Origin: Candidatus Poseidoniales archaeon
GTDB lineage: Archaea; Thermoplasmatota; Poseidoniia; Poseidoniales; Poseidoniaceae
NCBI GenBank assembly: GCA_003602605.1
Contig: QQRW01000018.1
Location: 286 to 64,285, forward strand
DNA: 64,000 nt
Reading direction: 5' to 3'
In this document: one piece after another, positions 2,741 through 37,716 of the stretch
Numbering within the stretch: position 1 is the stretch's first letter
How the letters are laid out: every line of letters starts with the position of its first letter
The notes under the pieces: model-generated
The model's input: only the letters and a program-made list of their open reading frames with translations
Told to the model about the DNA's origin: nothing
Database searches by the model: none
Made by a program: the position numbers and the translations under genes

Positions 2741-5215
2741 ATGCGTTCAACCGTCTTTGTCGCGCTTCTCCTCTGCACAATGCTGCTTCCAGTCACTGCG
2801 ATAGCGACTGAAGGCCGTGAGCAGCCAAATTGCTTGAACGATACTCCTGATGCATTCTCTAGCGCCACAGTTATCGGTGACGGCGCCTGCATCAAAATCA
2901 ACCTCGGTGTATTGACTCCCGGTGATGTTTACGATCTCTCCATCATTGTAAGCCAAGACGCTCTTGATGTTCTCGTGTTCGATCAGAATTCAGTGCAACC
3001 GTATGATTTAGGCCAATCGTATCGCTCTTCATACGAACAAGTACCTTCGACTGAATCTGCTCTCGGCAGTTTCGAGTTTCACTGGAAAGTTCCTCCTTCC
3101 ATCACTTCCAAATCTTGGTACATTGTTTTCGATAACACTGCTCATTCTGGAGACCAAGGCATGGGCGACCAGGGTGGCGCTGACAGTCGTGCCAGTTTGA
3201 CCATTTCCAAAATTACAGAATCGTATTGGACACCCTTCCATGATGTCATCGGTATGCAAAGTGATTCCTACAAAAATCTACTTTCAGGAGACGATTTCCG
3301 ACTTGATGCGGGGACCACAGTCGTCGTTTCGGCTTGGTCATTGGAAGGCAACGGTGATGTCTATCTTCAGACTCAAGGGATGAATGATTTGTACACCTCG
3401 GGTGGTGTTGGTTCTTTGTTCATTACCGGTGCTGGACTACGCTCAGTCGACGGCTCCGACTCTTTTTCTTGGGTTGTTCCAAACGAATTGGACGGAGAGC
3501 CACTTTTCCTCATCGCTGACAACACAGATACACCGGTTGGAGGGGGTGATGGAACTTCTCCAGTCCGAATGACTGTGCGCATAGAATTCGCCCCACTGCT
3601 CAGTCCCGTCATCAACGACGATTCAAATGGAACGACCATCATTGGCAGGGCAGTTTCACTTGACGCAATGGCGACTCCAAATCGGCTTGAACAAGTTGCA
3701 TCAGCATCTTGGGACTTCGATGCTGATTTCGATTCCAACGGAGACGGTGACAAAGTCAACGACGCTGATGCTTCAGGTTGGCAAGCCCTTGCCATTTGGA
3801 CAACCCCTGGAGATCGAACTGTGACGCTTACCGTCACATCTCCAACCGGCGAAGTCGCCACAACCTCTTCGATAATCTCAGTGACCGATGTCGTAGATCC
3901 CGTTGCACGAATCGGTGGTAATGGACAACCCATCAGCGGTGGCTGGAAACTGGTAACTGACCAATCGATTGCTCTCAATTGCGATGGCAGTACCGATGAT
4001 GACCAAGTGAGCACCTGCTCATGGAACCTCGATGGAACTCCATACGGGCAAAACAATTCCATCACACTCTCTTGGAGCGATATTGGCTTGCATACAGTGA
4101 CACTGACGGTCACTGACCCATCCGGAAACAGCAACACCATTTCGACGCTGATCAGGGTGACCGATACCACTCTACCCGTTCTTGACCAGACCTCTCTTGA
4201 TTTACTTCCGTCATCTGGTTTGATTGATGATACGATAAAGTGCAGTGCCTCAGCCAAAGACTCCTACGACTCAAGTGCAGTACTGCGTTACCATTGGGAT
4301 ACAAATCCAAACATTGACTCCGACGGCAACGGTAATGCTCGAGATGATGCAGATTTGAGTGGTTCGACTGCAGAAATTGTTTTTGCAAAGGCGGGAAGTT
4401 ATGATGTTGTTCTCACCGTTTTCGATCAGTCCAATAATTCCGACAGCCATGCCTTCACGATTACCGTTGAAAACGCAGATGAAAAAGGGACCATCGCTGG
4501 AATTTTGATGGTGGTCTTGTTTATTGGGGCAATCACCATGGGCGTTGCTTTGGTTGGTCATCGTCGCTGGCAAAAAGGAATTGCAATGCAACTTCTTCTT
4601 GATCGAGGTTTGAGTTCCGCAGAGGCAAAAGCCCACATGTCAAACGTTTCGAGCACACGAAAACTTCCTCTATTTTCGTCTGCAATTGCACTTGCAGGAT
4701 TGGAAAGCAACGACTCTGTGCAATCAACATCTTCGAAAGCCGAAGACGCAAAGGCTGCTGAAATGGCAGCAATTTACGGAACTGAACCGTCCGTTGCACC
4801 AACTTCGCAAGGCGCTTTCGCCCCTCCAACATTCGCTTCTCGAACCGTTTCAGCCGGTAGTCAAGCAGCAGCCGCAGATGCCATGGCCTTGTTTAACGAC
4901 GATTCGCCTGCACCATCGATACAACCTGTCCTACAAACGCCCCCCCCTCAAACACTCAATGAACTCACGCCCACAGCACCGATTCAAACCGTTGTTCAAA
5001 GCGGCGGTATTTCATTGCCCGACGGTGTCTTGAAACCAGCTAACGCCACACCGCCTCAACCGACTCCAGTGCCCGAACAAGTATCGCAGCCTGTGCAGAC
5101 ACGGGTCACGTGCAGCGCGTGTTCTGCAGTCTTTGCAATACAGATGCCCGTCGGTGTCAATAAAGTGGTCGTTGCTTGCCCTTCATGTTCGAAGGATTCA
5201 ACCGTTGAGTTATGA
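2741..5215 (+). CDS. secreted PKD-repeat surface protein with single TM and C-terminal cytoplasmic zinc ribbon
   Basis: Signal peptide (MRSTVFVALLLCTMLLPVTAIA); repeated 'TVTLTVTxPxG...VTD' PKD-like modules; TM (IAGILMVVLFIGAITMGVALVG) then Pro/Ala/Gln-rich linker and C-x2-C-x17-C-x2-C at extreme C-terminus. ORF track starts at 2717; internal Met at 2741 gives a cleaner signal peptide. Confidence 0.7.
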   Translation: MRSTVFVALLLCTMLLPVTAIATEGREQPNCLNDTPDAFSSATVIGDGACIKINLGVLTPGDVYDLSIIVSQDALDVLVFDQNSVQPYDLGQSYRSSYEQVPSTESALGSFEFHWKVPPSITSKSWYIVFDNTAHSGDQGMGDQGGADSRASLTISKITESYWTPFHDVIGMQSDSYKNLLSGDDFRLDAGTTVVVSAWSLEGNGDVYLQTQGMNDLYTSGGVGSLFITGAGLRSVDGSDSFSWVVPNELDGEPLFLIADNTDTPVGGGDGTSPVRMTVRIEFAPLLSPVINDDSNGTTIIGRAVSLDAMATPNRLEQVASASWDFDADFDSNGDGDKVNDADASGWQALAIWTTPGDRTVTLTVTSPTGEVATTSSIISVTDVVDPVARIGGNGQPISGGWKLVTDQSIALNCDGSTDDDQVSTCSWNLDGTPYGQNNSITLSWSDIGLHTVTLTVTDPSGNSNTISTLIRVTDTTLPVLDQTSLDLLPSSGLIDDTIKCSASAKDSYDSSAVLRYHWDTNPNIDSDGNGNARDDADLSGSTAEIVFAKAGSYDVVLTVFDQSNNSDSHAFTITVENADEKGTIAGILMVVLFIGAITMGVALVGHRRWQKGIAMQLLLDRGLSSAEAKAHMSNVSSTRKLPLFSSAIALAGLESNDSVQSTSSKAEDAKAAEMAAIYGTEPSVAPTSQGAFAPPTFASRTVSAGSQAAAADAMALFNDDSPAPSIQPVLQTPPPQTLNELTPTAPIQTVVQSGGISLPDGVLKPANATPPQPTPVPEQVSQPVQTRVTCSACSAVFAIQMPVGVNKVVVACPSCSKDSTVEL

Positions 5216-5363
5216 ACCGCCCGTAGGGCGAACTTGAGAACCCTTGAAAATCCGTCCATGAAAGGGATGGGTTCTCATAGTGGTAATTCTTGAGTGCATC
5301 ATGGTAGAGGGCCAACCGCGTTTGATTCGAGTTGGTCTGCCTCAGGCATCAGACCCCCGTCGA

Positions 5364-8300
5364 ATGGCTGTAGCCATGGTCATCTTGATGTTCATATCGA
5401 TGGCTCAACCCGCAGGTGCAGACTTGTCGGTTTCAAGAAATGACTTTGGCGTGCTGGATGAATTGGACGAGACGCTTTCAAAGAGAACCGCTAACGGAGA
5501 AGCCATTGTAGCTGCAGAAGGAGCAGCTGACGCTCTGAATGCGGTTGACCTTGCTCAACGCCCAGTTGATGCCACTGATCCACTTTCTCAGGCGAGCTCT
5601 TACCTTGACAGTTTGGAACTCCGAGACGCTTCACCGTTTGAAGCGGACCATCCTCGACCGTATGAGTTTCTAATGGACGCTTCTACTCAACCTGACGGTT
5701 GGCCTTACAATTTGTTCGAAACTTTGTTTTCAGTACAATCACTCGGTCTTGACAACATTCTCGGCATTGGAATCAATACGTATGCAGTGTACGTTAATTT
5801 CACTTCAAGAGATAACGGTCCATCACATGAAGCATGGGTTGAGGGCACTTTTACTGGTGAACTTTTGGTTGGAACAGATCTTGTTTTGTTCAACAATTAC
5901 ATCGATATTGACGGCGATTCAGTCGATGATTTATCGGTCGGACTAACCATTCAAGGCATCATAACCCAAGGCGATGGATTTGGAATTGAGCTTGGCGATT
6001 GTGAGTTAACACCGAGCCCTGGCCCGGGCATACCCCCAGTTACCGTACCGTGTGTGGAAGAATTGTGGGTGCGCCCGACCTTCCAATGGAAAGTTACTGC
6101 GCTTAACCAGAACGATTTCTTGTGGAACAACATGTCGCACCTTGAAGTCAGCTTGATGAAAGGTCTAGCTTTCGATTTAACGCTTGACGACTCGGAATCA
6201 TATGCCATTGTCATCGACACACGATTTACTCAACCTCCTCACGAATTTACACTTGGAGTTGGTCTACAGAAAATGGCATTCAATGTGAATGCGGTTATCA
6301 CCAATACTGCTGGTTTCATCACTTCACTGTTTAACGGCGGCATCAATGCATCGTCGCTAAGTCTGACATCCATTTCTGCTCCTTACGCCATCCGAGTCTC
6401 AAATCCTGATTCCGACAGTTCGGACCGTCAATCCGACTGCGATGATGGCACTGGTTACTATGACCCGTTCACCGATCATAAAACTGAAAGCCATTTGCAT
6501 AAATGTGGATTTGGTCTCGGTGTTGGCTTCATTCGATTTGATGGGTACGGTGGAGGAACGACTGCTCCGATTTTGGAAACCGCATACATCGATGTAGGTT
6601 TCCACCCTGAAGAAGGTGAAACACGAATCCCTAACGAAGTTGACATCACTCTTCGCAACGATAATCTCGGTGCGAACACATTTGATACTGTAGAAATCTT
6701 TTCCGATTACGGCTCAGACATGTACTTCCACTATTTCGAAGACCGTTCGAATACTACGGAGGGTGATTCACCTTTCGGAAACACAACGGATTCTCGAACC
6801 TGGATTCGAGGCCTCCCCTCGGGAACACTTCACCCCGATGAAATCAATGCTATTTTTACCATGATTGGTGAGGCCCCAGGAAGCGCAAATTTACCCGGAG
6901 AAATTCCGAGCCGTCTTTCAATGATGATTGCGATAAAGAACTTCTCAGGCGACAACACCAACAACGTTAACGATCCAACTTTGCCGGTAAATCCTGCTGC
7001 ACCTCCAAACACGCTTGTTGCCATTGTAGCGACCGAATCAATCGATCTTTTGGACTACAAATCGACCTTCAAACGTGGGGGGTATGATGCTGACTCATCT
7101 TCCATTCAACTGAGCATAGCAAATGTTCCCAAAGTCATCATTGTTGAGGGCAGTTTTCAAATCCCCGAAAGCGGCTTGAGTCGAGTATCCTACGATAACC
7201 CCAACCTCAACACGGTTGCTCAGATTTTCGACAATGCCTTACTGACCGTGATTGAAGTTATTCTGGATGTTGGAGATGTTGTCAACGGTCTACCTGAATC
7301 GATTGTCGGAACGGCTGGTTCTTCTGGGGGAGCGGTACGAATGAACTGCTACAACCAAGTCCGATTGAGCCTACCTGCCTCGACGCGCAGTCCGATGGAA
7401 ATTGGTTCAGTTTCGATTGCAATCTCGAGCAGTGACCAACCTTGGTTGCCTGACATCGACCATATTCTACTGTCAGAGGACACCAATATCCAAACTGTAA
7501 ACGGCCGCCTTGGTGTTCAAGAGCCACTTGTTCCCGTTGCAATGAGCGCTCGAATTGGAGGCATATCGAGCGTCAGCCATGATTACGACCCGATTAACGA
7601 TGTTCGACAAATGGAATTACGAGGAATTAACGGAGGACCCCTTTTGATCGGTCACCTGTTACACGATGACGGAGATTTGACCACTGCCAATCAACAGTCT
7701 GCTACGCTCTCAAACCGCCCCAGCACGTTCAATGTTACTCAAACTGCGGAAGCCCTTACCTACACAGCTTCTGCTCCAATTGGAACCATCACTTACGGAG
7801 GTAACGGAGATGGCCAGCGAAACGCAATACGCTTGAACGGTCTTCCCTCTTCGTTCCAACTTATTTTGGGCGATACTGTCGGTTATGTCGCAGCAACCCC
7901 AATGGAATCGATTGAAGTTCAACTCACGAACTCGACTCAACCGCTGACAATGGACGGCGACCACTTCCGATTCTGGGTGAACGAGACCTCTGGTGAAGCA
8001 AGCCTCAGTACCGCAATTTCAGATGTTACGAGCCTGCGTCGCCTTTCCCCCTTAGATCCTGGTTCGAAAGGGCCTGAAGGGAACTCGCGCATCGAACTTA
8101 TCCGCGCCAACTCCGCTCCAATGAATGTCTTGATGGAAGACGACACCGTCTACGAAGATTCCTTCAAGGGAATGAACGGGCGTGTGGCGATCGACCCGCT
8201 TCCAGCAAACATCACTATTGCTTATCCAAGTGGGGTCGATTCAGGCGGACTTGAATTGCCTACTTTTGACGAAGGCGACGGCGTTCAAGCCCTGTCGTTC

Positions 8301-10004
8301 TTTTTGGGTGACTTAGTCAATTTCGGCTCTCTTGTCAATGATTTCGTTTATTCGACGGTTGTGGATTTGGGCGGTTTAGAGGCCGGAAATGAAGACATGT
8401 CACTTGGTCTTGATTTGATTACCGGCGAATTGTTTAATGTCACTATGGACATCGAAAAAGGCTCGAATGTGATTGATGAACCTGAATGGTCTCACGGTAT
8501 TGGGATGGAAGTTTTCGAAGCAACAGTTGTTTCGTTCAACCTCTCACGAATGCCAACGTATACATTATCGAGCCGTGAAGTTGTTGACGAGGCACTGCGT
8601 GATTACAAAATCACTCCAGCGGAATATGAACTGGTTTTGGAAGTGTTTGAGAACACCAACATCTCCGGATTTATTCCACTTCTTCTTGCACTGGAAGACG
8701 GTATTGTGCTCGATTCAGAAATTGAAGGAGTGAACTTGAGCCAGTGGGAGGAGCAGGGAATTACCTTTGAATTACGTCGCTCATGGCACATGCGCTCTTG
8801 GTTGCCGAGTCTTCCAACCGGCCGGATACTCTTGGAATATGATTTCAGAATGATCGGCGACCTTCCCGTGTACGAACTTGATGTTTATCTCGAACAATGG
8901 ACTCCTAAACGCCAGCAACTGAGTATAATCGTGAACGGACTCGAAGGCCGCGACCTCGAATTTGTCATTTCTGGACTGGACACAACCGAGGCCAACAACG
9001 TAGAAGCGAATGCCGTATTTTCGACGCAGGACAACCTCACCGTTCCTCGCGTATCCATCGATATGCATTATGACCTCGGAACCCGTTTGGATTCTGCCCA
9101 TGCTACTTTCATCGACCGGCGAGAACTTAGCCGCGTTGAGGCGTTAATCGTAGGCGTTCCCCAAGAAACCGATTTTTCTACCACGATTGGTGATATTTTC
9201 CTCATTGATCTCTTGGTACCGTCGCAGTACCAAATCGATGGCCACTCTGCAGAATCGTTGATGATTCAACAGATGCGTTTCGTCGATGGGTTCTGGTGGC
9301 CTGCTACCGCATTCATGCGTGATTTACCTGGTGAAATGCATCTTGCTGCTCAGCCGAACACCGAGTTTGATATCCGCTCAGAGGTCTCGTTCCAGGGGAT
9401 GATGGAACTCGATTACAGGTCCAACACTGATGACATGGATTTGTATTTGGAAGCAACTGGCCGGTCTGTTGACACAAAGGGAGATGTTCTGATGCTCGCC
9501 GAAGACCTTCCTTCCACATTCGTTCTCGAGATGACCGATGACTGGGGCGTTCGTGTCGCATCTTCAGGTGACGGTGTAAGCCGTCTTTATCTCAAACAGA
9601 CCGATGTTCCATCGTCACCGGGAGTTGTAGTGGATCGCGTCGAAATAATCGGCCAAAACCTCCAATCTGCAACCATTCATATTTACACTGGACCGTTCCA
9701 GTATCCATTGATTGTCATTGATGACATTACCAACGGCCGAATCGTGGCCAGTGCTGAGGCCACCGTTGAGCCGTACCATACAACTGGTATGCTTGAAGGA
9801 TATTCATTCAACGGTCGTGCTGTTCTTCTCGATGCCCAATTCACGGGCATCTTACCGACCGCTTCGTCGATTGGCGTCAACGGTATGGTCACCGATCTCT
9901 CCTTGGTAGGAACGCTTACCGACGATACTGTAGAAACCCGTCACATTTTGCTTGTTGAACCGATTACGACCGTCATTGCCAGTGGTTTGGCACTCATTTG
10001 GTGA
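5364..10004 (+). CDS. giant secreted surface protein (about 1546 aa) with C-terminal hydrophobic anchor
   Basis: Long ORF with N-terminal signal peptide (MAVAMVILMFISMAQPAGA) and C-terminal hydrophobic tail (TTVIASGLALIW). No recognisable enzymatic motif. Start moved to internal Met at 5364. Confidence 0.6.
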   Translation: MAVAMVILMFISMAQPAGADLSVSRNDFGVLDELDETLSKRTANGEAIVAAEGAADALNAVDLAQRPVDATDPLSQASSYLDSLELRDASPFEADHPRPYEFLMDASTQPDGWPYNLFETLFSVQSLGLDNILGIGINTYAVYVNFTSRDNGPSHEAWVEGTFTGELLVGTDLVLFNNYIDIDGDSVDDLSVGLTIQGIITQGDGFGIELGDCELTPSPGPGIPPVTVPCVEELWVRPTFQWKVTALNQNDFLWNNMSHLEVSLMKGLAFDLTLDDSESYAIVIDTRFTQPPHEFTLGVGLQKMAFNVNAVITNTAGFITSLFNGGINASSLSLTSISAPYAIRVSNPDSDSSDRQSDCDDGTGYYDPFTDHKTESHLHKCGFGLGVGFIRFDGYGGGTTAPILETAYIDVGFHPEEGETRIPNEVDITLRNDNLGANTFDTVEIFSDYGSDMYFHYFEDRSNTTEGDSPFGNTTDSRTWIRGLPSGTLHPDEINAIFTMIGEAPGSANLPGEIPSRLSMMIAIKNFSGDNTNNVNDPTLPVNPAAPPNTLVAIVATESIDLLDYKSTFKRGGYDADSSSIQLSIANVPKVIIVEGSFQIPESGLSRVSYDNPNLNTVAQIFDNALLTVIEVILDVGDVVNGLPESIVGTAGSSGGAVRMNCYNQVRLSLPASTRSPMEIGSVSIAISSSDQPWLPDIDHILLSEDTNIQTVNGRLGVQEPLVPVAMSARIGGISSVSHDYDPINDVRQMELRGINGGPLLIGHLLHDDGDLTTANQQSATLSNRPSTFNVTQTAEALTYTASAPIGTITYGGNGDGQRNAIRLNGLPSSFQLILGDTVGYVAATPMESIEVQLTNSTQPLTMDGDHFRFWVNETSGEASLSTAISDVTSLRRLSPLDPGSKGPEGNSRIELIRANSAPMNVLMEDDTVYEDSFKGMNGRVAIDPLPANITIAYPSGVDSGGLELPTFDEGDGVQALSFFLGDLVNFGSLVNDFVYSTVVDLGGLEAGNEDMSLGLDLITGELFNVTMDIEKGSNVIDEPEWSHGIGMEVFEATVVSFNLSRMPTYTLSSREVVDEALRDYKITPAEYELVLEVFENTNISGFIPLLLALEDGIVLDSEIEGVNLSQWEEQGITFELRRSWHMRSWLPSLPTGRILLEYDFRMIGDLPVYELDVYLEQWTPKRQQLSIIVNGLEGRDLEFVISGLDTTEANNVEANAVFSTQDNLTVPRVSIDMHYDLGTRLDSAHATFIDRRELSRVEALIVGVPQETDFSTTIGDIFLIDLLVPSQYQIDGHSAESLMIQQMRFVDGFWWPATAFMRDLPGEMHLAAQPNTEFDIRSEVSFQGMMELDYRSNTDDMDLYLEATGRSVDTKGDVLMLAEDLPSTFVLEMTDDWGVRVASSGDGVSRLYLKQTDVPSSPGVVVDRVEIIGQNLQSATIHIYTGPFQYPLIVIDDITNGRIVASAEATVEPYHTTGMLEGYSFNGRAVLLDAQFTGILPTASSIGVNGMVTDLSLVGTLTDDTVETRHILLVEPITTVIASGLALIW

Positions 10005-10008
10005 TTCT

Positions 10009-10674
10009 ATGACGGATGATTCTTCAATTTTATACAACGAACATGGAGACATGGTCGTTCATGAAGATGATATTGAATCTCTTGGGTTGCTGGACGTAGC
10101 TCGGTTGCAAAAGATAGAATCACTGGGGTATACTCTCGACGAAGACGGAATTGAGACGTACGAAGACATGCAACGTGTCACCAAAGCTCTTCGTACGATT
10201 CGTCGAGAAGTGAGCCCGAGTCGAGTCGCACTTGCAGGTATTGTTGTTCTGTTGTTGTTTGGAGTTCTAGTCAGCGGATGGTATTGGGCTCTTCCACGCG
10301 ATGCAGTCAATGTTGAGACGCAATACCTTCAGCGCGGCGGACATCTCTTGATGTCAGAAGTTCACAATGTTGGAAGCCGTGATATCACCGATGTTTCGCT
10401 CCTTATTGAATTCCAATCGATAGAAGGCGAAATACTTGACTTCATGTCCATCGAAGTTGACAAAATTGAAAGTCACTCTTCTTTGGCTGGAGATAAACTG
10501 GAAATGATAGTTATTGGTCATTCAGTTTGGGATGAATACGTCATCAAGGTGGATTTACGATACACCAACTACAACGGTGAAATTATTTCTGAAACATGGA
10601 GCCATTCCGTCGGGGTTTGGACTGTAGAACAATTTGTCGATAAGGCTGACAGGACAACATGGCCGATTTCTTGA
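10009..10674 (+). CDS. hypothetical single-pass membrane protein
   Basis: GGTGA RBS 8 nt upstream of ATG at 10009; acidic N-terminal region, one TM (VALAGIVVLLLFGVLVSGWYWAL). Co-transcribed between giant surface protein and subtilase. Confidence 0.45.
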   Translation: MTDDSSILYNEHGDMVVHEDDIESLGLLDVARLQKIESLGYTLDEDGIETYEDMQRVTKALRTIRREVSPSRVALAGIVVLLLFGVLVSGWYWALPRDAVNVETQYLQRGGHLLMSEVHNVGSRDITDVSLLIEFQSIEGEILDFMSIEVDKIESHSSLAGDKLEMIVIGHSVWDEYVIKVDLRYTNYNGEIISETWSHSVGVWTVEQFVDKADRTTWPIS

Positions 10675-10723
10675 CTCTGAAATCAACGAACTGACAGTAA
10701 TTAGAGGAGGGATAGCCGTGAAG

Positions 10724-13700
10724 ATGAATCATTCGATGAAGTGGGCGATTGCCCTCGTCACCCTGTTTGTTTTACAGAGTGCATCACCTCTCATTCACCC
10801 CAATTCAACCCCCGTTTCGAACATGCAATCCGATGGTGGCATCGAATGGGTCCAGTTTGATTTGGTTGAAGGCGTCTACTCTGACGCAATTGGACACGAA
10901 GAGTTCACTACTCATTCAGAGTCACGCTCTGAACTTGCTGTGAGTCGAATCGGAACTTTCGATGCGAATGGACTCGAACTTCAACGTCCAGTCCCAAGCG
11001 ATTGGCTTACTCCACGATTGGATTTGAGTCTCGTTATCGTTTCAAATGAAGTTTTGCTGCTCGATGTACGCAACACCATTCAGGCAGTTCCGGGATTGGC
11101 AATTCGCGAATATATTGCACCTTCTGGACTGCTGGTTCAAGGAACTCCATTAGCGCTTTCAATGCTGAGTCAAACGGAGGGCATCGTTGCACAACATCCA
11201 GTTCCTATGGCTTTACTCGTTGAAGGTGATATTCTGGACGTTCTCCTGCTTGAAGATGGTGAGCAATCACTCGTTGGTTCCTCAATGCGGATCGAGGGTT
11301 GGCGCGATGATTCCGGACCTCTTTCCGGCATAGCGTTCACCGATGTCGAAGGCCACTCATTGGCGCAAGAAGTTGAAACATTCATTCCGTACGCATTTTC
11401 ACCCTTCCGCCAATGGGACGAAGGACGATTTCAAGGCATTCTTTCGTCAGAAAATCTTGTCGAAATTGTTGCACAACCTTCGCTGAGAATTCTACGGTTT
11501 GAACCGCTCTTCTCAGGCGACAACAATCAAGCCCGAACACACATGAAAACCTCCCAAATGACCAGTTACTTTACGACGGATTTGGATGGCTCGGGACAAA
11601 TTGTAGCTGTTGCAGATTCTGGACTCGACGAAGATCACGGTGATTTTGGAAACCGTATACTTTCCAGTAATGATGTCATCGGTGATGGTTCCACTGCGGA
11701 CAAACATTCCGGCCACGGTACTCACGTTGCTTGCACCGTCCTCGGAGACGGGACTCAAGGTGGATATTCTGGCGTTGCAACCTCTGCTGAACTTTACTTC
11801 CAGGCCATGGAAAACGACAACACCGGTAATTTCCAATCCCCATCGCTCAATTATCTTCTCAACTCTGCATACTCCGCAGGAGCTTACACGCACACGAATT
11901 CCTGGGGTTCGTCGCTTGAAAGCGACCAAGGGAAATACACTTCCGAGAGCGAAGATGTTGACGACCGTTCAAATTACTATGATCGGTATTACAACGGTCG
12001 AAATGGCCTCACAATTCTTTTTGCAGCAGGTAACGACGGCCCGAATTCCGGAACTGTAGGCGCTCCTTCCACCGCAAAGAACACCATCACAGTCGGTAAC
12101 CATCAGAACCGCTACTCCGGTGCTCCTGACTCGATTATGTCCGGTTCTTCCCGTGGCCCTACCGACGACGGGCGCATCAAGCCAGACATTATCGCTCCGG
12201 GCGGATATGTTCGTTCTTGCCGTGCGCAAGAGGCTGGAGATACTGCAGGTGCAACCTGGTCCAACACGTATTATCTCGAGTATACTGGAACCTCAATGGC
12301 CACGCCAAATGCCGCTGGTGCAGCAGTGATGGTACGTGAATATCTCGAGGAAATCGCCCAACGGCCATCGCCTCAAGGAGCGTTGGTGAAGGCATTGCTC
12401 ATCTTAGGGGCAGAAGATGTTGGAACGCGTGATATTCCGAACGACGATGAGGGCTGGGGACGACTTAACTTGCGCAACACACTTGCTCCGACTACCGGGC
12501 AAGGAATATGGGTCGATGACCGCTCAGTTCTCTCCGGAACGGGGAATTCAAAGACGTACACATTCAATATTTCACAAGGTAATTCAGGTTTCAAGACGGT
12601 GTTGGCATGGTCGGACGAACGTGGCTCGCCGTTTTCCAACACGCAGTTGGTGAATAACCTCGATATTGAAGTTACCAATCCGAGTGGTGAAGTGTTCTTT
12701 GGTAATGATTTTGCAAACGGACGCTCTACGACCAACGGAGTTTCAGATAGCATCAACAACGTCGAAGTCGTCTTGGTAGACAATGCGGAGATCGGTATTT
12801 GGACGGTCAAAGTGAAGGATGCTTTACACGGCGGAAGTCGGGCCCAACCGTTCGCATTGGCTGTCATGGGGCATGGAGTGAATGACTTACGGCCAGACCC
12901 GGTCGTTCTTGAGGATGAATTCGCAATGTCTGTGACTATTCCACAAGTTGGTGACGAATTACAAGTAACGACCAAAGTATTCAACGTCGGCAATGTTCGG
13001 TCGGGTTTCTTCGATATGGAGTTCGAGGTTGACGGCGTGACCATTGACTCCAAGTCGATTGATCTTGGTGCCGGCTCCACCAAAACTCAGGTGTGGTCAT
13101 GGACCCCACAAACTGCTGGCCAATCCACGCTATCGTTCATTATCGACACCAACGATGTCATCGAAGAGATTTTGGAAAACAACAACCGTTACGATGTGTT
13201 GGTGAACGTAACTGCCCCTGGCGTGAAACTTTCTGCTGAACCTCAAACCATCACGCTGCTCAATACCTCACTCTCAACCACCTCATGGAGTCTTGATTTG
13301 ACCAATACCGCTCTTGTATCGACCAATGCAAGCCTCCTCACTCAAACCGTGTTCAACGAAGACTCTGGCCAATCGATGCCGTGGTATGTTGGTTCAAACG
13401 AATCAAACTTTACGTTAGGCGGACAGGAATCTGCTGAGATTGTTGTTACACTGGTTCATCCAACTCCCCCGCTCCCCGGAACGTATCGCATAGATTTGCT
13501 CGGAATTGATGTTGATAATGGGGTAAATTATCCTTACATGCTCTATTTTATCGTCCCAGACCTTCCGAATCTTCGACTTGAGTACGATTACCAAATTGTT
13601 CCAGTTTCCCCTACAGAACCGACCAGTATCGACATTCGCTTATTCAACATTGGAAACGCCAACATTGGCTATGACCTGTTCCTTGAAGCTCCCGCTGGAT

Positions 13701-15253
13701 GGGACGCAGGTTTTGATACCCTTTCCAGTGTACCGGGTGCGAGTTCGGGTTCGACAGGCCTGATTACGAAGGATACTCACAGAGACATCGGGATGTCGTT
13801 TACTCCTCCACAGGTCATGACTGGAGCCGGTGCGGAACGGATGGTTCGCTTGACGGCCATTTCACAAACAGAGGTTGCGGAAAGTTGGGTCTTTGACATC
13901 CCTATCAAGGTCGATACCGTGAAAGCCATCGACATTGACCTCGAATCGAATCTTGGCGTTCTACGCCCTGATTCATCGTTCAGTATGCTGTTCGCACTGG
14001 AGCACAGGGGGAATGTTGACCTCTCGTTAACTCCTTCGTTTGAATTGCCATCTGGTTGGGCCGTGACTTCAGGAATGGAGGCTTTTGATCTCCCATGGAC
14101 CTCTTCAAAAAATCTGTTGTTTGGAATTTCAGGCGATGGGACTGGGTCCTCAGGTCAAGTAAAATTACACCTTGACAGCGGTTCAGACCGAATGACTTGG
14201 ACAGGTGAATTCAATGTTGAACTGCTTGCTCAACCAACCATCAACTTCGTACAACTTGCCTACGATGGTCAGACTTGGGACACGCCGTTTGGACCAGGCT
14301 CTCATCCCACGGGTGTACCTCTTCAATTCACGTGGCTTATCGGCAATGAGGCCAATGTTGAGTGGCAACCTACTGCGTCCGTTTCACTCTCAAGTGGATT
14401 GTTTGGCGAATGTTCAACGCTCGAAGCAATTGGGCAGGGCGACCTCAAACCAGTGACATGCACAGTCATCATTTCTTCCTCAATGGAACCTCTCTCTGAA
14501 CCGTCTTTCGTGCTCAAACTAGCTGGAGATGAAGTCGAATCGACTCAAAACATTGGCCTCTTGGTTGCTACTGTGGTCGAATCCGCATGGCAGATGGAAC
14601 GCACAACTCAACTGACTACCGGTGCCCAAGAACAGATTCAGGTGACGCTGACAAATGTAGGTAACACCGCATATTCGCATAAGATCGTTGTCGATGGTTC
14701 GAAAGATTGGAAGGCGTCAATCGACGGAAACGATGTCTTGAATTTGGAATCGGGTGAATCAACGAAGATTCGGCTGCTCGTGCGTGCTGACCGCCCAGGT
14801 GATGGCTCAATCACCCTTGCATTGCAAGGTGCTGAGCAAATGACAAACAGCTCGTTTACTTTCTCACTTTCTGCTGTCGGTGAACCAACGGGGACCTCTG
14901 GCCAATCCTTGCCCGTTGGCGCAATAGGTGTTGGTGCTCTTCTCGTGGCACTGCTCATTGTCGGACTTTTCTTATCCCGCCGGAAATCGGAATCTGATTT
15001 TACTATCGACCCTTCGTCGAAATTCACCGCCCCATTGGTGACGGTACCTCCTGTATCGGCAGTTCCGCAAACATCAGCAACTGTGCATTCACCGACATGC
15101 TGGTCATGTCGGCAAGCGATTACTGGGCCAATGCTTGGTTGCCCCGGATGTGGGGCTCGCTACCATCGAAAAGAAGTTCCATCTTGCACTTCTAATACGC
15201 TGCAACAATGTGTAAATTGTAATGCTTCAACTTCGACCTTCGTTCATGCATGA
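10724..15253 (+). CDS. subtilisin-like serine protease (peptidase S8) with CARDB-like C-terminal repeats, TM and cytoplasmic Cys-rich zinc ribbon
   Basis: GAGGAGGG RBS then ATG. Catalytic triad motifs DSGLDEDHGDF, HGTHVACTV, GTSMATPNAAGAAVMV. Downstream repeated 'NxGNxxxG' CARDB-like modules; TM (VGAIGVGALLVALLIVGLFL) followed by CWSC...CPGC...CVNC. Confidence 0.85.
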   Translation: MNHSMKWAIALVTLFVLQSASPLIHPNSTPVSNMQSDGGIEWVQFDLVEGVYSDAIGHEEFTTHSESRSELAVSRIGTFDANGLELQRPVPSDWLTPRLDLSLVIVSNEVLLLDVRNTIQAVPGLAIREYIAPSGLLVQGTPLALSMLSQTEGIVAQHPVPMALLVEGDILDVLLLEDGEQSLVGSSMRIEGWRDDSGPLSGIAFTDVEGHSLAQEVETFIPYAFSPFRQWDEGRFQGILSSENLVEIVAQPSLRILRFEPLFSGDNNQARTHMKTSQMTSYFTTDLDGSGQIVAVADSGLDEDHGDFGNRILSSNDVIGDGSTADKHSGHGTHVACTVLGDGTQGGYSGVATSAELYFQAMENDNTGNFQSPSLNYLLNSAYSAGAYTHTNSWGSSLESDQGKYTSESEDVDDRSNYYDRYYNGRNGLTILFAAGNDGPNSGTVGAPSTAKNTITVGNHQNRYSGAPDSIMSGSSRGPTDDGRIKPDIIAPGGYVRSCRAQEAGDTAGATWSNTYYLEYTGTSMATPNAAGAAVMVREYLEEIAQRPSPQGALVKALLILGAEDVGTRDIPNDDEGWGRLNLRNTLAPTTGQGIWVDDRSVLSGTGNSKTYTFNISQGNSGFKTVLAWSDERGSPFSNTQLVNNLDIEVTNPSGEVFFGNDFANGRSTTNGVSDSINNVEVVLVDNAEIGIWTVKVKDALHGGSRAQPFALAVMGHGVNDLRPDPVVLEDEFAMSVTIPQVGDELQVTTKVFNVGNVRSGFFDMEFEVDGVTIDSKSIDLGAGSTKTQVWSWTPQTAGQSTLSFIIDTNDVIEEILENNNRYDVLVNVTAPGVKLSAEPQTITLLNTSLSTTSWSLDLTNTALVSTNASLLTQTVFNEDSGQSMPWYVGSNESNFTLGGQESAEIVVTLVHPTPPLPGTYRIDLLGIDVDNGVNYPYMLYFIVPDLPNLRLEYDYQIVPVSPTEPTSIDIRLFNIGNANIGYDLFLEAPAGWDAGFDTLSSVPGASSGSTGLITKDTHRDIGMSFTPPQVMTGAGAERMVRLTAISQTEVAESWVFDIPIKVDTVKAIDIDLESNLGVLRPDSSFSMLFALEHRGNVDLSLTPSFELPSGWAVTSGMEAFDLPWTSSKNLLFGISGDGTGSSGQVKLHLDSGSDRMTWTGEFNVELLAQPTINFVQLAYDGQTWDTPFGPGSHPTGVPLQFTWLIGNEANVEWQPTASVSLSSGLFGECSTLEAIGQGDLKPVTCTVIISSSMEPLSEPSFVLKLAGDEVESTQNIGLLVATVVESAWQMERTTQLTTGAQEQIQVTLTNVGNTAYSHKIVVDGSKDWKASIDGNDVLNLESGESTKIRLLVRADRPGDGSITLALQGAEQMTNSSFTFSLSAVGEPTGTSGQSLPVGAIGVGALLVALLIVGLFLSRRKSESDFTIDPSSKFTAPLVTVPPVSAVPQTSATVHSPTCWSCRQAITGPMLGCPGCGARYHRKEVPSCTSNTLQQCVNCNASTSTFVHA

Positions 15254-15344
15254 GTTGATAACTGAGTCACATTAGTTCGAATCAAGCGTGGGTAGCCTTT
15301 TGATAGTAAGGCTTCCACCGGGGGTCATGGACCCCCGAGAAAAG

Positions 15345-18257: not shown

Positions 18258-18385
18258 AGTTCTCTTCACTGCCATGCAGTGTAGTGGTTTCAAGAATGCT
18301 AGACGCTCACTTTTCCTCGTGATGTTTTGGGAATACTTATGTGAGTCCCTCAAGTCGCAAAGAATGCGGAGCGTATGCTTTGCAT

Positions 18386-18871: not shown

Positions 18872-18881
18872 GGTGGATATC

Positions 18882-21279: not shown

Positions 21280-21289
21280 GGTGATTATT

Positions 21290-22798: not shown

Positions 22799-22809
22799 GG
22801 TGAATTATT

Positions 22810-23799: not shown

Positions 23800-23800
23800 G

Positions 23801-24641: not shown

Positions 24642-24650
24642 GGTGTTTGA

Positions 24651-28571: not shown

Positions 28572-28572
28572 A

Positions 28573-30303: not shown

Positions 30304-30407
30304 GGCTGTTCTTTCGGCTTAAACGCCCTATTGCGGGACTTTTGAGACGGGTTCTTGGGTGCTGTATTCAAGAAGGGTCGGCTGTTGGGATATACAGGTG
30401 AGACTAC

Positions 30408-31109: not shown

Positions 31110-31135
31110 AGTGATGCAAGACCCTGGGTGGGCGA

Positions 31136-32143: not shown

Positions 32144-32953
32144 TCACTCTTCGCCCCAACTGACTTCTTCATCTTCTGCAAGTTCCATCATTTCGATGAC
32201 AGCTTCTTCGTCTTCCGGGTCAACTTGGGCTGCACGCATGCGTCGATTCCGTCGTTCAGAGAGGTCAGATAAGCCAGGTACGAGTCCTTCAAATCCAGTG
32301 GAAGGGGCAGTTGTGTCCTCGCGTATTTCGATGCTGTCAAGTTGACGATTTACGATTCGAGACCGTCTTCGATCCCGTTCGAGGAAGTTGAGTACGGTCC
32401 CATGTTCTGCCCCACCGGCAATCATTTCGATAGCTTGACGGGCAGCGGAAAGGCCTTCTTCTTCACCGACCAATACAACCGTAGAATTGTAAATGGTGAT
32501 TTGAGTGTCGGTTAATCCCTCGATGAGTTTGCGGATTTTCCCTTGGCTTCCAATAATACGCCCGCGGATTCTGCGTTGTTGATTCGATCTTTTACCAACG
32601 AATTTTCGGATATCAACAAGTTCGAAAAAGTGGTTGTCTTCAAGCAACTGAATTGCCGCTTTCGGAGCCATACCTCTGCCGATAGCTTTGATGACGTTTG
32701 GAAATTTCATTGCTTTGACAGGATCATAAGTGCCAGGCTCTCCCCAAACAACTTCGACATCACCGGTTTCGGAGTCGATGTTGAATTCCTCGCATCCTGA
32801 TGCGGTTCGGAGGGACTTCGCAGTCGCTCCTTTTGAACCAATAAGCACCGCGATGCGGTTCATTGGTACACGAGGCAGTGGCTGGCGCATGGCTAATCCT
32901 ACAGCCGACCTCTTTTCAATCTCTTGTTCGGCGTTGGAATACACTGATGGCAA
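32144..32953 (-). CDS. KH-domain RNA-binding protein (archaeal Dim2/Pno1-like)
   Basis: Two KH-like GxxG segments ('IGSKGATAK', 'IIGSQGKIRK'); completes the aIF1A-Rio1-KH archaeal gene neighbourhood; acidic C-terminus. Confidence 0.65.
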   Translation of the reverse strand: MPSVYSNAEQEIEKRSAVGLAMRQPLPRVPMNRIAVLIGSKGATAKSLRTASGCEEFNIDSETGDVEVVWGEPGTYDPVKAMKFPNVIKAIGRGMAPKAAIQLLEDNHFFELVDIRKFVGKRSNQQRRIRGRIIGSQGKIRKLIEGLTDTQITIYNSTVVLVGEEEGLSAARQAIEMIAGGAEHGTVLNFLERDRRRSRIVNRQLDSIEIREDTTAPSTGFEGLVPGLSDLSERRNRRMRAAQVDPEDEEAVIEMMELAEDEEVSWGEE

Positions 32954-34721: not shown

Positions 34722-34914
34722 GATGCTGTGACGGGTGCGGTTATCCTTGAATGCTCCCCTTGATATGGGTCGTTTCTCGTCAAATGAGTTCTGTCTTTTT
34801 CACATCAGTCATGTATTACCTCTCACGGAGCAGACGAATCTTTGCCTTGAAGTGGTTTTTTTTCATGGCTCGCAGAGATGGGTTCAAGTGCTCCGCAGGT
34901 TGTCGAATACCTAC

Positions 34915-37716
34915 ATGGCAAGCGCGTGGAAGCCGATATTGGCAATTCTTCTCCTCTGTATAGCATCGGTTCCGATGCCTGTATCAGCGGAGCAAAGCGG
35001 TTCGATTCAGGCAAGTCCGAGTACGGTTGCCCTACTTCCAGCCAATCCTGTTGCAGGTGGTTCGGTCACGATTAACCTGCAATTGTACAACAGCGGCAAC
35101 TATGCGACAGATGTCGAATACTCATTTTATCGTGATTCGAGAGGTCCTGACCAACTTCTCAAAGAAGCCACGATTGATATCGATACAGAAACCTCTGCGC
35201 AGGTTTCAGCAGTGTGGAACGGACTCACTGAAGGTGATCACGAGGTTCATATCACTTTCGAACATCCTCGAAACTCTGGTAACGAAGCGCATTTCTGGGT
35301 TGACTTTACCGTTACCGGGCTTCCGAACCTCAAGGTAACGCAAACTGAACTTACACCAGCGACTGGAATTTTCTCAGGAGACACTGTTATGCTTTCTTCA
35401 CTTGTCCGAAATGTAGGCAGTGAACCTGCAGTCTCAAGTATCCTTCACATCGACTTACCCGGTTCGAGCGACTTGGATCTCACAACTCCGCCTCTTGACG
35501 CAGGGGCAACAGAATGGGTCAACACAACTTTTACCGCTCCTGAAAGTGGCTCACACATACTCTATGTTACGCCGGATTACCAAGATGCAGTTCAGGAGTC
35601 ATCAGAATTCAACAAAGTGATAGAAGTTCCACTCGTTGTTGATACTCGGATGGATGTTTTCCACATTGGAGAACTAACAGTAGACATTGCCGAAGGGGCT
35701 CTTCAAGGCCCGTGGGTGGTTTCAGGAAAACTCGGCCGAACCAATGGTACCGGTTTATCGGATGTACCAATGTGGCTCCAAATTTCAAGTCTAACCGGTC
35801 AATTGGTTACAACTGCGCCATTTAGCGTGCCGTTGAGTGGAACAGGATATGCTGAATCGACGTGGAGCCATACCCTTACCGCTGCTGAACTCGATGGACT
35901 ACCTGCCGGTATGCATACCATCACTGCTAAGATTGACCCGTTCTCGAATGCTGCTTTTACACAAGAGTCAACAGATAACGACGAGGTTTCAAGCACCCTC
36001 TCTAAGTTTGAGGTGCCTGATGTATTCGTTGATGCGAACGCTATCGCCTCATCCCCATCGGTAAACTCCGGAGATTCGGTTGAATGGCGTGTAAGTATGA
36101 TCAATACTGGCGATATTCGTGTTTCTGGTCGATTACACTACACATGGGAAGGGACAACTGAAACCTCTCCGATTATCTATCTCGATTCCGGTCAAGATTA
36201 CACCTGGGTCGTTGAACTCACCACCGCTATTGGTGCACACCAGGCTGACTTCGAGGCTCAGTGGGTCGCTTCTTCAAACAGTTGGGACTCAAACCCCTTG
36301 AACAGCGTTGCAACCGGTACGGTCTCCGTAGAAGCAAATTTACGTCTTAGCTGGGCTCTCTCAACCCTCGAAGTGACCGATTCAGAAGGTTCGGCATTCA
36401 CACTCCCAATGACTCAAGGAAACGATTATTCCCTTACCATCGATTTGACCAGTACTGCTACTGGTTCACTAACTTATGATTGTGTAGATGGCAACGATGA
36501 ACTCATTAGCACAGTTACTGCTGAAGTTGTGAACCTCGGAGACAAGGTCACGCTTACATGTGATTTTACCGCAGTAGCCCCGTCTACTGTCGTGCGATTG
36601 GTGCCCTCGGATTCAACGATTTCAAACACCTTTACGCGGACATTCTCTACCGTACTAAGCGGAGATGAAATTGATGATATGAATTCCAATTCTGAACTTG
36701 GGACGTTCACGCTGATTGGGTTCGTTGCCGTTATTCTCATAGCTATCCTGGCAATTTCAGTGTTTTTGACCCGTGAATCAGAGGAAGAAGTTGAACGTGA
36801 CATTTTCGAGTACTGCCCAGCATGCGATGGTGAACTCGAAGGTGATGAAGACCGATGCCCTCATTGTTCATTCAATCTCAAGAAGGCGAGAAAGCAATTC
36901 CATGATTGCAATGAATGTGGCGAATCGATTCCAGATTTACTCGACAATTGTGTCTATTGCGGTGCTGAACAAGACGTCTCCTCCTTCTTTGAGAAGCGAG
37001 AACGTAAGGAACGCACGGTCAAAGAAACGGTTGCTTTGCCTGATGAAATTGACGAAGACGCTATCGTTACAGGAACCGAGAACTTTGCTCAAGCTGTGAA
37101 AGAGTTTGGATTTGATGAAGATGAACTTGAGTTTGAATGGGATGAGAACATCGCAACTGCTGAAGCGGAAGTCGAAGCCGCTTATGATCGTCGAAACGCT
37201 GACGAAATTCTGCGTGAGGACATGACTGAAGAAGAATTGGAAGCGTACGAAAACACAGTTACAACCACGCTCAAGAGCATGAAGGATCTCAGTGAGAGTT
37301 CAAACGACATCGACGCTATTTTGGCTTCGAAGGGCGAGATTATTGCACACAAGGACGATGGAAAGGATCTTTCAGCAAGCGATGCAGACATTCGTGGTCG
37401 ACTGTATGAGATTACTGGGGAAGACGGAATCATGCCGGGCGACAAAGTGAACGTCGGCATGCAACTGTCAGATTCAGCATTTGCAGGAAACGAAGTAACG
37501 GAAACCACCTCTGATTTCACTGTAATTGACGACGAAAAACCGCTTTCAAAGATCGAAGATTTGGCTCCTAAGGCTGAGAAACCTGCCCGCAGGAGAGGTG
37601 CTCGTCGCAAAGCTGCTGAAGAAGTAAAGCCCGATGTTGCAGAGTGTGGTGCGTGCGGTGCTGATTTGCCGGTTGAAGCTACTGAATGTGGAACCTGTGG
37701 CGCTAAGTTTGAGTGA
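34915..37716 (+). CDS. CARDB-repeat surface protein with TM and cytoplasmic domain bearing three zinc ribbons
   Basis: Signal peptide (MASAWKPILAILLLCIASVPMPVSA). Repeated 'NxGxxxA' CARDB-like modules. TM (FTLIGFVAVILIAILAISVFL). Cytoplasmic 'CPACDGELEGDEDRCPHC', 'CNECGESIPDLLDNCVYC', an acidic helical region, and terminal 'CGACGADLPVEATECGTCGAKFE'. T9 tract 55 bp upstream. Confidence 0.7.
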   Translation: MASAWKPILAILLLCIASVPMPVSAEQSGSIQASPSTVALLPANPVAGGSVTINLQLYNSGNYATDVEYSFYRDSRGPDQLLKEATIDIDTETSAQVSAVWNGLTEGDHEVHITFEHPRNSGNEAHFWVDFTVTGLPNLKVTQTELTPATGIFSGDTVMLSSLVRNVGSEPAVSSILHIDLPGSSDLDLTTPPLDAGATEWVNTTFTAPESGSHILYVTPDYQDAVQESSEFNKVIEVPLVVDTRMDVFHIGELTVDIAEGALQGPWVVSGKLGRTNGTGLSDVPMWLQISSLTGQLVTTAPFSVPLSGTGYAESTWSHTLTAAELDGLPAGMHTITAKIDPFSNAAFTQESTDNDEVSSTLSKFEVPDVFVDANAIASSPSVNSGDSVEWRVSMINTGDIRVSGRLHYTWEGTTETSPIIYLDSGQDYTWVVELTTAIGAHQADFEAQWVASSNSWDSNPLNSVATGTVSVEANLRLSWALSTLEVTDSEGSAFTLPMTQGNDYSLTIDLTSTATGSLTYDCVDGNDELISTVTAEVVNLGDKVTLTCDFTAVAPSTVVRLVPSDSTISNTFTRTFSTVLSGDEIDDMNSNSELGTFTLIGFVAVILIAILAISVFLTRESEEEVERDIFEYCPACDGELEGDEDRCPHCSFNLKKARKQFHDCNECGESIPDLLDNCVYCGAEQDVSSFFEKRERKERTVKETVALPDEIDEDAIVTGTENFAQAVKEFGFDEDELEFEWDENIATAEAEVEAAYDRRNADEILREDMTEEELEAYENTVTTTLKSMKDLSESSNDIDAILASKGEIIAHKDDGKDLSASDADIRGRLYEITGEDGIMPGDKVNVGMQLSDSAFAGNEVTETTSDFTVIDDEKPLSKIEDLAPKAEKPARRRGARRKAAEEVKPDVAECGACGADLPVEATECGTCGAKFE

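Follow-up and report, generated by a model that had tools for sequence, protein, structure and literature searches.

Predicted cytoplasmic zinc-ribbon tails on three conserved surface proteins of Poseidoniaceae archaea

Here we describe three surface proteins encoded in a 64,000-nucleotide stretch of contig QQRW01000018.1 (positions 286 to 64,285 of the forward strand; this whole stretch is referred to as the window), from a Candidatus Poseidoniales archaeon of the family Poseidoniaceae, in Marine Group II (assembly GCA_003602605.1). One contains PKD repeats, one is a membrane-anchored subtilase of family S8, and the third is referred to here as the CARDB protein. Each has a signal peptide, a large ectodomain, a single transmembrane (TM) helix and a C-terminal tail bearing a cluster of cysteines, a shared layout that was proposed in an initial annotation of this DNA and is confirmed by translation and by Pfam. 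The tails are predicted to lie in the cytoplasm and to carry zinc ribbons or a related zinc-binding module, and they retain the putative metal ligands across orthologues. We tentatively propose that these zinc knobs would act as docking modules, either for a partner in the cytoplasm or at the inner leaflet of the membrane, or for each other.

Cysteine-cluster tails of three surface proteins

The features of the three proteins and of their tails are as follows (coordinates are those of the window; aa, amino acids).

2741..5215, + strand: PKD-repeat surface protein, 824 aa, with signal peptide, PKD repeats, one TM helix and a 218-aa tail; RJU82409, 'hypothetical protein'
4493..4561, + strand: TM helix of the PKD protein (IAGILMVVLFIGAITMGVALVGH), aa 585-607, with a conserved HRRWQK directly after it
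4562..4906, + strand: juxtamembrane block of the PKD protein, predicted cytoplasmic, RGLS..EA.AH ... AGLD ... IYG ... FAP ... SQ.S..AA
5102..5200, + strand: predicted C-terminal zinc ribbon of the PKD protein, CxxC-x18-CxxC, of the MJ0042/Zn_ribbon_4 (ZitP/GltJ) type
10724..15253, + strand: membrane-anchored S8 subtilase, 1509 aa, with signal peptide, CARDB and Ig-like domains, one TM helix and a 92-aa tail; RJU82412
about 11588-12460, + strand: Peptidase_S8 domain (Pfam), with the D/H/S context intact
14912..14974, + strand: TM helix of the S8 protein, aa 1397-1417, followed by SRRK and a variable Pro-rich linker
15092..15250, + strand: C-terminal C4-H-C3 module of the S8 protein, CWxCR-x8-GCPxCGARYH-x6-C-x7-CxxC-x6-F
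34915..37716, + strand: CARDB surface protein, 933 aa, with signal peptide, ectodomain, one TM helix and a 315-aa acidic tail with three predicted ribbons
36703..36771, + strand: TM helix of the CARDB protein, aa 597-619
36808..36966, + strand: predicted double zinc ribbon (Pfam DZR), two CxxC-x10-CxxC units, the first of them 12 residues past the TM helix
37576..37611, + strand: basic patch (EKPARRRGARRK) ahead of the last ribbon
37639..37704, + strand: predicted third zinc ribbon at the C-terminus of the CARDB protein, ECGACGA-x7-ECGTCGA

The cysteine patterns of the tails are not due to chance. In a rough gene call of the window (~50 genes), the motif CxxC-x(4-40)-CxxC was restricted to the three proteins above and two small ones described below, all five with hydrophobic segments, and when the residues of each protein were shuffled in 20,000 trials the four-cysteine pattern was recovered in 0-29 of them (<=0.15%). 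These are the five open reading frames (ORFs) singled out in the initial annotation, and all of them exist with the features that had been ascribed to them. The density of cysteines in the tails exceeds that in the ectodomains by a factor of 10-25: the S8 protein has seven in its 92-aa tail against four in 1365 aa, and the CARDB protein has 12 in its 315-aa tail against two in 565 aa. The ectodomain cysteines of the three proteins occur as separate invariant pairs, unlike the CxxC clusters of the tails, and are likely to form disulfides.

Topology was assessed at the level of families, on the basis of hydropathy, the positive-inside rule and signal-peptide logic. For the S8 and PKD families we scanned one genome per GTDB species with the S8 protein, which gave 248 relatives, and took 80 loci; the S8 set holds 71 full-length sequences and the PKD set 52 (38-94% identity). 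For the CARDB family 172 homologues were collected, of which 117 full-length sequences (51-93% identity) were aligned. The CARDB-protein homologues and all 80 related loci come from Poseidoniaceae or Poseidonia metagenome-assembled genomes (MAGs). An N-terminal hydrophobic segment is present in 115 of the 117 CARDB, 62 of the 71 S8 and 51 of the 52 PKD orthologues, and lysine plus arginine are more numerous in the 15 residues after the TM helix than before it in 103/117, 58/70 and 49/52 cases, respectively. Because signal peptides, a single TM helix, this charge bias and the contrast between ectodomain pairs and tail clusters all agree, the tails of the PKD, S8 and CARDB proteins are predicted to be cytoplasmic. 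The inside placement assumed in the initial annotation thus stands as a prediction for the three large proteins, while for one of the small ones, of 210 aa, it is ambiguous (see below).

The same alignments answer the concern, raised at the outset, that the cysteine pairs might not be conserved. All 12 tail cysteines of the CARDB protein are invariant in the 117 orthologues, including those of the double ribbon (634/637/648/651 and 665/668/679/682), as are all four of the PKD ribbon in 52 orthologues; in the S8 tail six of the seven are invariant in 71 orthologues and the other, Cys1459, is kept in 70. Across the three families this holds for sequences as divergent as ~38-50% identity. Because the ligands are invariant and the CARDB tail is more conserved than its ectodomain, the sequences support the view that the tails are functional parts of these proteins and not incidental extensions.

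No block of the CARDB protein is more conserved than the double ribbon, which has a mean identity of 0.87-0.90 against 0.45-0.67 for the ectodomain and, together with its flanks, is nearly invariant in the family. Mean identity is mostly 0.6-0.9 over the tail and falls to 0.43 in a variable stretch around the basic patch, of which two arginines are invariant. Pfam finds a CARDB domain in the protein as well as DZR (PF12773), the latter just above the gathering threshold (27.8 versus 27.3 bits), and PF12773 is precomputed for most of the 120 CARDB homologues listed. The tail is acidic overall (isoelectric point, pI, 4.3; 84 D+E versus 37 K+R). An AlphaFold2 model of it, based on a 15-sequence alignment, has the appearance of beads on a string, starting from the TM helix, with predicted local distance difference test (pLDDT) values of ~70 for the two ribbons of the pair, 83-91 for one helical segment and ~78 for ribbon 3, and with the long acidic stretch disordered. 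Since the predicted template modelling score (pTM) of this model is 0.21, a global fold search with it is meaningless, and Foldseek against the PDB returned nothing at E <= 1 and only generic ribbons of ~25 residues.

In an exhaustive profile search covering 1.84 billion representatives, the CARDB tail was found solely on proteins of the same size and layout (~25 full-length representatives). Because it occurs on no other ectodomain in that search, the tail is a single orthologous family rather than a shuffled module; the neighbourhood of the gene is fixed down to 52% identity. Ribbon 3 is dispensable in part of the family, because distant orthologues (P0140-P0142, P0147, P0149 and P0150) lack it and end right past the Arg-rich patch; these proteins keep the basic patch, the double ribbon, the acidic helices and an LSASDA..IR...TGE.GV.PG motif. 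In two further distant orthologues (P0158 and P0162; locus L082, 10001-12826) a Cupredoxin_1-like domain replaces the double ribbon (31.9 bits versus a gathering threshold of 27 in P0162), and by the same topology logic this domain would be cytoplasmic. P0162 is a positional orthologue, with the same gene neighbourhood as the CARDB gene, and has no His/Met copper ligands after its cysteine. Many members of the family (P0016, P0298-P0305) are named 'ribosomal protein L40E' by JGI/IMG, which is an annotation artefact arising from zinc ribbons on a 933-aa surface protein.

The PKD domain of the first protein is confirmed by Pfam. Past its TM helix the conserved juxtamembrane block, of ~115 residues, is followed by a Pro/Ala-rich linker of highly variable length, and the whole tail ranges from ~220 to 330 aa across orthologues. 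No relatives of the juxtamembrane block were detectable; a UBA-like fold was considered for it and dropped when neither Pfam, with 16 members scanned, nor a profile search of the PDB gave a hit. The ribbon at the C-terminus matches PF13717 (Zn_ribbon_4) in 20 of 20 orthologue ribbons (best E 2.1e-6), with Pfam Zn_ribbon_4/5 scores of 16.7-23 bits that lie below the cut-off of 30.3, and a profile of it finds the GltJ/AgmX ribbon 7zok_A in the PDB at E 0.013.

The S8 protein is apparently an active, membrane-bound subtilase and is likely to be involved in protein degradation. The tails had been described as carrying one to three ribbons of four cysteines each; this is correct for the PKD and CARDB proteins, but the S8 tail has eight ligands in C4-H-C3 order, spaced C-x2-C-x10-C-x2-C-x4-H-x6-C-x7-C-x2-C. 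Because all eight are conserved, the module probably binds two zincs. In an alignment of 19 S8 modules the His of GCPxCGARYH is invariant, and positions C7, C10, C21, C24, H29, C36, C44 and C47 do not vary; the linker between TM helix and module spans ~25-80 residues across orthologues. Prok-RING_1 (PF14446) is matched over its full length by 17 of the 19 modules (best E 2.3e-4), although the window sequence itself scores 17.6 bits against a gathering threshold of 29.1, and DZR is matched by all 19, and equally well. The second half of the module aligns with 2nb9_A, a 49-aa ribbon (CPxC...RY...CxxC) that we take to be the ZitP finger (E 0.004); the next match is a C1 domain (E 0.015). The 2nb9_A alignment pairs C3 and C4 with C7 and C8, as in a cross-brace, and the DZR alignment pairs C1-C4, as in a tandem arrangement; a single-sequence AlphaFold2 model of the module was unusable (pLDDT 47).

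Aligning the tails with one another does not bear out common homology of the ribbons, a question posed in the initial annotation. They appear to comprise at least two types, a DZR-type (x10) and a ZitP/GltJ-type (x15-18), in addition to the putatively binuclear S8 module. The spacing CxxC-x10-CxxC, which is DZR/zinc_ribbon_2-like, is common to CARDB ribbons 1-3, the first half of the S8 module and a small 93-aa protein described below. With hhalign, CARDB ribbons 1-3 and the first half of the S8 module align in register at 49-92% probability, pairs with ribbons 2 and 3 reaching 84-92%, and ribbon 1 reaching 54% with ribbon 3 and 49-71% with the S8 module. Shared cysteine spacing in such short domains is not proof of common descent.

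Genomic setting, plain anchors and small ribbon proteins

Within a block of five genes (2741-18257) the PKD gene comes first and the S8 gene fourth; the other three are:

5280..10004, + strand: 1574-aa surface protein with a short hydrophobic anchor and without a zinc tail
9952..10674, + strand: bitopic protein of ~220-240 aa, with an acidic N-terminal cytoplasmic region, one TM helix and a C-terminal domain outside
15288..18257, + strand: 989-aa protein with Ig-like domains and a short C-terminal anchor

The genes thus run in the order PKD protein, 1574-aa protein, bitopic protein, S8 protein and 989-aa protein, at intergenic distances of -52 to +65 nucleotides (nt) and directly 5' of the nuo operon. 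This order is kept in 56-80 of the 80 Poseidoniaceae loci, so that the block is a conserved and undescribed cell-surface gene cluster, and it is consistent with a multi-protein surface assembly that needs to be organised. The region is core chromosome: the surface cluster (2.7-18.3 kb) is followed by the nuo (complex I) operon (18.3-30.3 kb), then by genes for eIF1A, a RIO kinase, a KH protein and a Big-domain surface protein, and then by the CARDB gene, beyond which lie genes for a Cas4-like nuclease, rpS2, Dus, helix-turn-helix (HTH) regulators, glycosyltransferases and a FadB-like enzyme. A public MAG contains exact matches to four of the proteins, entered there as 'hypothetical protein' (DWC09_02165, DWC09_02180, DWC09_02335). 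Among the 80 related loci, which are all syntenic and so do not amount to a genome-wide census of proteins combining TM helix and ribbon, no further family of this kind was found beyond the PKD and S8 orthologues, apart from three singletons that are probably chance ORFs.

The initial annotation had remarked that archaeal surface proteins do not need a zinc ribbon in order to be anchored, and plain C-terminal and PGF-CTERM anchors are indeed found in the same window. The three zinc-tailed proteins have no Pfam match to PGF-CTERM and no PGF motif, and their tails extend for 92-315 residues; a PGF-CTERM protein (46799-50887) and three others stop within a few residues of their hydrophobic segments. 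Because such anchors coexist with the zinc tails in both the window and the cluster, the tails are something additional to anchoring and do not themselves serve as the anchor, and binding of a cytoplasmic partner would therefore be their most reasonable function.

The two small ribbon genes have the following features.

45926..46558, - strand: 210-aa protein with an N-terminal ribbon, CxxC-x15-CxxC (46469-46552), and a C-terminal region of ~95 aa
46211-46300, - strand: hydrophobic segment of the 210-aa protein, 30 residues, with an invariant G-x-P in the middle
51537..51818, - strand: 93-aa protein (RJU82438) with a predicted hairpin (51663-51800) and a C-terminal ribbon, CxxC-x10-CxxC (51567-51632)

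Both had been taken to consist of TM segment and ribbon only, and to start at 46591 and 51905. The starts have been corrected to 46558 and 51818, the latter backed by an exact database match. The 93-aa protein is predicted to form a two-helix hairpin with both ends inside and has 59 members in its 90%-identity cluster. The description does not suit the 210-aa protein, in which ~55 aa separate the ribbon from the hydrophobic segment and the C-terminal region follows. A TGAATATAAA box lies ~25-35 nt 5' of the ATG of each gene (46585-46594 and 51848-51857, - strand); as a TATA-like element it is compatible with transcripts that have a short leader or none, and it lends support to the shorter start codons.

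Only eight homologue clusters of the 210-aa protein were found, all with the four N-terminal cysteines (4/4 in seven aligned sequences), and its ribbon matches Zn_ribbon_4/5 weakly (E 0.0019). The flanks of its hydrophobic segment hold one lysine or arginine before and five after, which puts the C-terminal side inside and leaves the placement of the ribbon ambiguous. Because of the invariant G-x-P in mid-segment, we consider a re-entrant hairpin more likely than a ribbon facing outwards.

Both small genes lie in a stretch of ~12 kb (~45.0-57.0 kb) that is absent from the syntenic locus L081, which accounts for the narrow distribution of the 210-aa protein. Its cargo includes an anthrone-oxygenase-like gene, a glycosyltransferase, a methyltransferase, a 1362-aa protein and several ORFs without a family; G+C content falls to 0.39 at 54-56 kb, and the stretch looks like a flexible surface or glycosylation island. 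The 1362-aa protein (46799-50887, + strand) has 51 cysteines, at least five LDL-receptor class A (LDLa) repeats (185 bits), a bacterial TSP3 repeat, a lipobox-like N-terminus (LLSGC) and the PGF-CTERM anchor already mentioned (24 versus 18.8 bits), and for an archaeal protein its set of repeats is unusual and eukaryote-like. Small ORFs for secreted or lipoprotein-like products, with SGC and VGC lipobox-like motifs, trail the CARDB and LDLa genes (37786-38421 and 50996-51535, respectively, both on the + strand), and no Pfam family was found for either; a protein of ~200 aa is also retained 3' of the CARDB gene in L081 and L082.

Possible roles of the tails

The reading that we tentatively favour is that the zinc knobs are cytoplasmic docking modules. 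According to this model, three unrelated type-I surface proteins would carry small zinc-stabilised modules on their cytoplasmic tails, placed either directly under the membrane (the CARDB double ribbon) or where a variable and flexible linker ends (the PKD and S8 modules and CARDB ribbon 3). The knobs would dock a putative partner in the cytoplasm or at the inner leaflet, or one another, and this docking would position, cluster or regulate surface adhesins and a protease from inside the cell, a mechanism for which the cytoplasmic ribbons of the bacterial bitopic proteins ZitP and GltJ would be a precedent. A tethered binding module is suggested because the ligands are invariant and the module is conserved while the linkers vary freely, because the predicted site is cytoplasmic and because ordinary anchors coexist with these tails.

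A number of points weigh against this proposal. Zinc binding is itself something that we infer, as are protein-protein docking and the existence of a partner. The annotated neighbouring genes include no obvious cytoplasmic adaptor, and a look through the window for candidate partners such as Roadblock/MglB-like proteins, small GTPases or scaffolds found none. The matches to ribbon families all fall below curated thresholds, with the exception of CARDB DZR, and in domains of 30-55 residues cysteine spacing alone can yield scores like those of the ZitP/GltJ-type and Prok-RING matches. The PKD, S8 and CARDB modules are C-terminal on type-I proteins, unlike the N-terminal ribbons of ZitP and GltJ. 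Finally, the exchange of the double ribbon for a cupredoxin-like domain could mean that the tail has a metal or redox function rather than a docking one.

Among the alternatives, a self-contained structural role comes first, although we think it unlikely. The tails would then serve in homo- or hetero-oligomerisation, in clustering, or as a stopper or topology lock, with no dedicated soluble partner. The CARDB double ribbon begins 12 residues past the TM helix and lateral contacts between tails are possible, the confidently modelled helical segment of the same tail could be a coiled-coil contact, and two zinc-tailed proteins are encoded in one cluster. However, the lysines and arginines beside the TM helices already fix topology, short anchors suffice for the other giant proteins of the cluster, the long flexible linkers of the PKD and S8 proteins make a stopper pointless, and three types of module would have evolved for one trivial role. 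Less probable again is transmembrane signalling, in which binding or proteolysis outside would make a tail release or capture a regulator (a transcription factor, TFB/TBP or RNA polymerase), in the manner of one-component systems or of the zinc-binding anti-sigma factors (ZAS) to which the initial annotation had likened the tails. Such a role would suit tails that are conserved and predicted to be cytoplasmic; some membrane-spanning ZAS-type regulators (RsrA, RslA, ChrR) have a zinc site on that side, and the GltJ ribbon acts as a conformational switch (PMC11135422). Moreover, the S8 tail of the window reads H-x3-C-x2-C (VHSPTCWSC). It is the sole tail to do so, however, and this His is P, Q, A or G in the S8 orthologues, so that the tails lack a conserved HxxxCxxC and the ZAS likeness was given up. 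Pfam found no zf-HC2 or anti-sigma domain in any tail or annotated neighbouring gene; no HTH or other output domain was found in the tails, and the helical anti-sigma domain and adjacent regulator gene of ZAS systems are missing. To our knowledge archaea lack sigma factors. No regulator gene is retained beside either locus, the HTH genes of the window (41.4-43.8 kb) being several genes away with housekeeping genes between, and single-pass proteins with disordered linkers of 25-170 residues relay conformational signals poorly.

Nucleic-acid or ribosome binding, by the CARDB basic patch and ribbon in particular and by the ribbons generally, strikes us as very improbable. The patch and ribbon 3 align weakly with bL32 (E 0.07), Foldseek aligns stretches of ~25 residues locally with L40e and RanBP2-type ribbons, and the automatic JGI name and the two invariant arginines of the patch point in the same direction; but all of these matches fall short of significance (E > 0.05; Foldseek E > 1), the strongly acidic CARDB tail disfavours such binding, ribbon 3 has been lost in several distant orthologues, and the PKD and S8 modules have no basic flank. 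We would attach only slight credence to metal or redox sensing. The four-cysteine sites would then respond to oxidative stress or to the metal status of sunlit surface water, either as thiol switches or by sensing zinc or copper, and would modulate the surface protein. Zinc sites with four cysteines are known redox switches elsewhere, for example in RsrA and Hsp33, and positional orthologues have a cupredoxin-like domain in the very place of the double ribbon. Against this, one of the two variants with that domain, P0162, is the protein without His/Met copper ligands, nothing ties the sites to an output, and the ribbons resemble ordinary structural ones. An inverted topology, which would turn the cysteine clusters into extracellular disulfide knots, is scarcely credible: it is the positive-inside rule that would place the ribbon side outside, in the 210-aa protein only, and in the large proteins signal peptides, a single later TM helix and the charge bias are consistent across 52-117 orthologues, the ectodomain cysteines form separate invariant pairs, and the tails are disordered or acidic and have no other cysteines.

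The docking proposal could be extended to the five-gene cluster as a whole, which might encode a surface machine whose zinc tails couple it to the cytoplasm, mechanically or in a regulatory way. Such a machine would be an archaeal counterpart of the bacterial linkages in focal adhesion (GltJ) or polarity (ZitP), and the RING/PHD-like C4HC3 knob of the S8 protein would be a regulated adaptor that possibly touches the ubiquitin-like SAMP system of archaea. This is speculation and we consider it improbable; were it true, an inside-outside coupling device would have been described for the first time in the planktonic archaea that are most abundant in the surface ocean. A ThiF/E1-like gene in the window (59924-60577, - strand) is of the housekeeping type and is not evidence for a ubiquitin-like link to the RING-resembling S8 tail.

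Significance and comparison with known systems

Few archaea are as abundant in surface seawater as those of Marine Group II, which are uncultured and have a cell envelope that is essentially unknown. The present analysis points to three core, syntenic surface proteins of such organisms, one of them a subtilase, with predicted cytoplasmic zinc modules that are as conserved as the ectodomains or more so. The tail peptides are short and expressible, and could provide a handle on cytoplasmic partners and on how adhesion and extracellular proteolysis are organised. Public annotation is also corrected, since these genes are now entered as 'hypothetical protein' or, wrongly, as 'ribosomal protein L40E'.

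The combination of ribbon, TM helix and outside domain is already known and common in prokaryotes, and there is nothing categorically new about it here; archaeal type-I examples are added to a design whose function has been worked out only for bacterial ZitP and GltJ. What appears to be new are the protein families themselves, which are un- or mis-annotated publicly, the C-terminal, type-I placement of predicted ribbons on giant ectodomains, including that of an apparently active subtilase, the C4HC3 module and the multi-ribbon acidic tail, and the fact that zinc-tailed families are fixed at core, syntenic loci in an archaeal family that is abundant and uncultured. Our search of the literature gave no report of zinc-ribbon tails in Poseidoniales; what Rinke et al. 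(2018) discuss is confined to adhesion genes and a zinc transporter.

The zinc tails share with anchors of the PGF-CTERM/archaeosortase type a C-terminal position on archaeal surface proteins, and both kinds occur in the window, but unlike those anchors they retain 92-315 residues past the membrane and are devoid of the PGF motif. The S8 module resembles Prok-RING_1 and PHD domains in its C4-H-C3 ligand order and PHD-like C-x4-H spacing, and differs from PHD in its H-x6-C and C-x7-C spacings; the Prok-RING_1 family has been described as characterised by a transmembrane domain (PMC4029887). Proteins that join a DZR or zinc_ribbon_2/3 domain to a TM segment represent a common prokaryotic architecture without an assigned family function, one example being Bacillus subtilis YdjG, a TM protein with a zinc ribbon encoded in the pspA operon (PMC9239133). 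The CARDB protein is built along similar lines, except that its predicted ribbons lie C-terminal to a large secreted ectodomain and are accompanied by an acidic tail of ~220 residues and a third ribbon.

ZitP and GltJ/AgmX (of Myxococcus xanthus) are bitopic envelope proteins with a cytoplasmic ribbon of the MJ0042 type (Pfam zinc_ribbon_4/5). In Caulobacter crescentus the ZitP ribbon binds the polar scaffold PopZ (PMC5182065), and the GltJ ribbon binds MglB and its own linker, controlling focal-adhesion turnover and so setting the lifetime of gliding adhesions (PMC11135422). In both cases the ribbon binds protein and thereby localises or regulates a machine of the envelope. The shared design is a single-pass protein with a cytoplasmic CxxC-x(15-19)-CxxC ribbon, a flexible linker to the TM helix and a functional domain outside. 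Weak matches to this type come from the PKD and 210-aa ribbons and from the second half of the S8 module, and the 210-aa protein also has the layout of ZitP, with N-terminal ribbon, linker, TM segment and C-terminal domain, although that domain is not DUF3426. The large proteins described here differ from ZitP and GltJ in belonging to an archaeon and in having giant ectodomains, one of them a protease, whereas PopZ and MglB, to which the ribbons of ZitP and GltJ bind, are bacterial.

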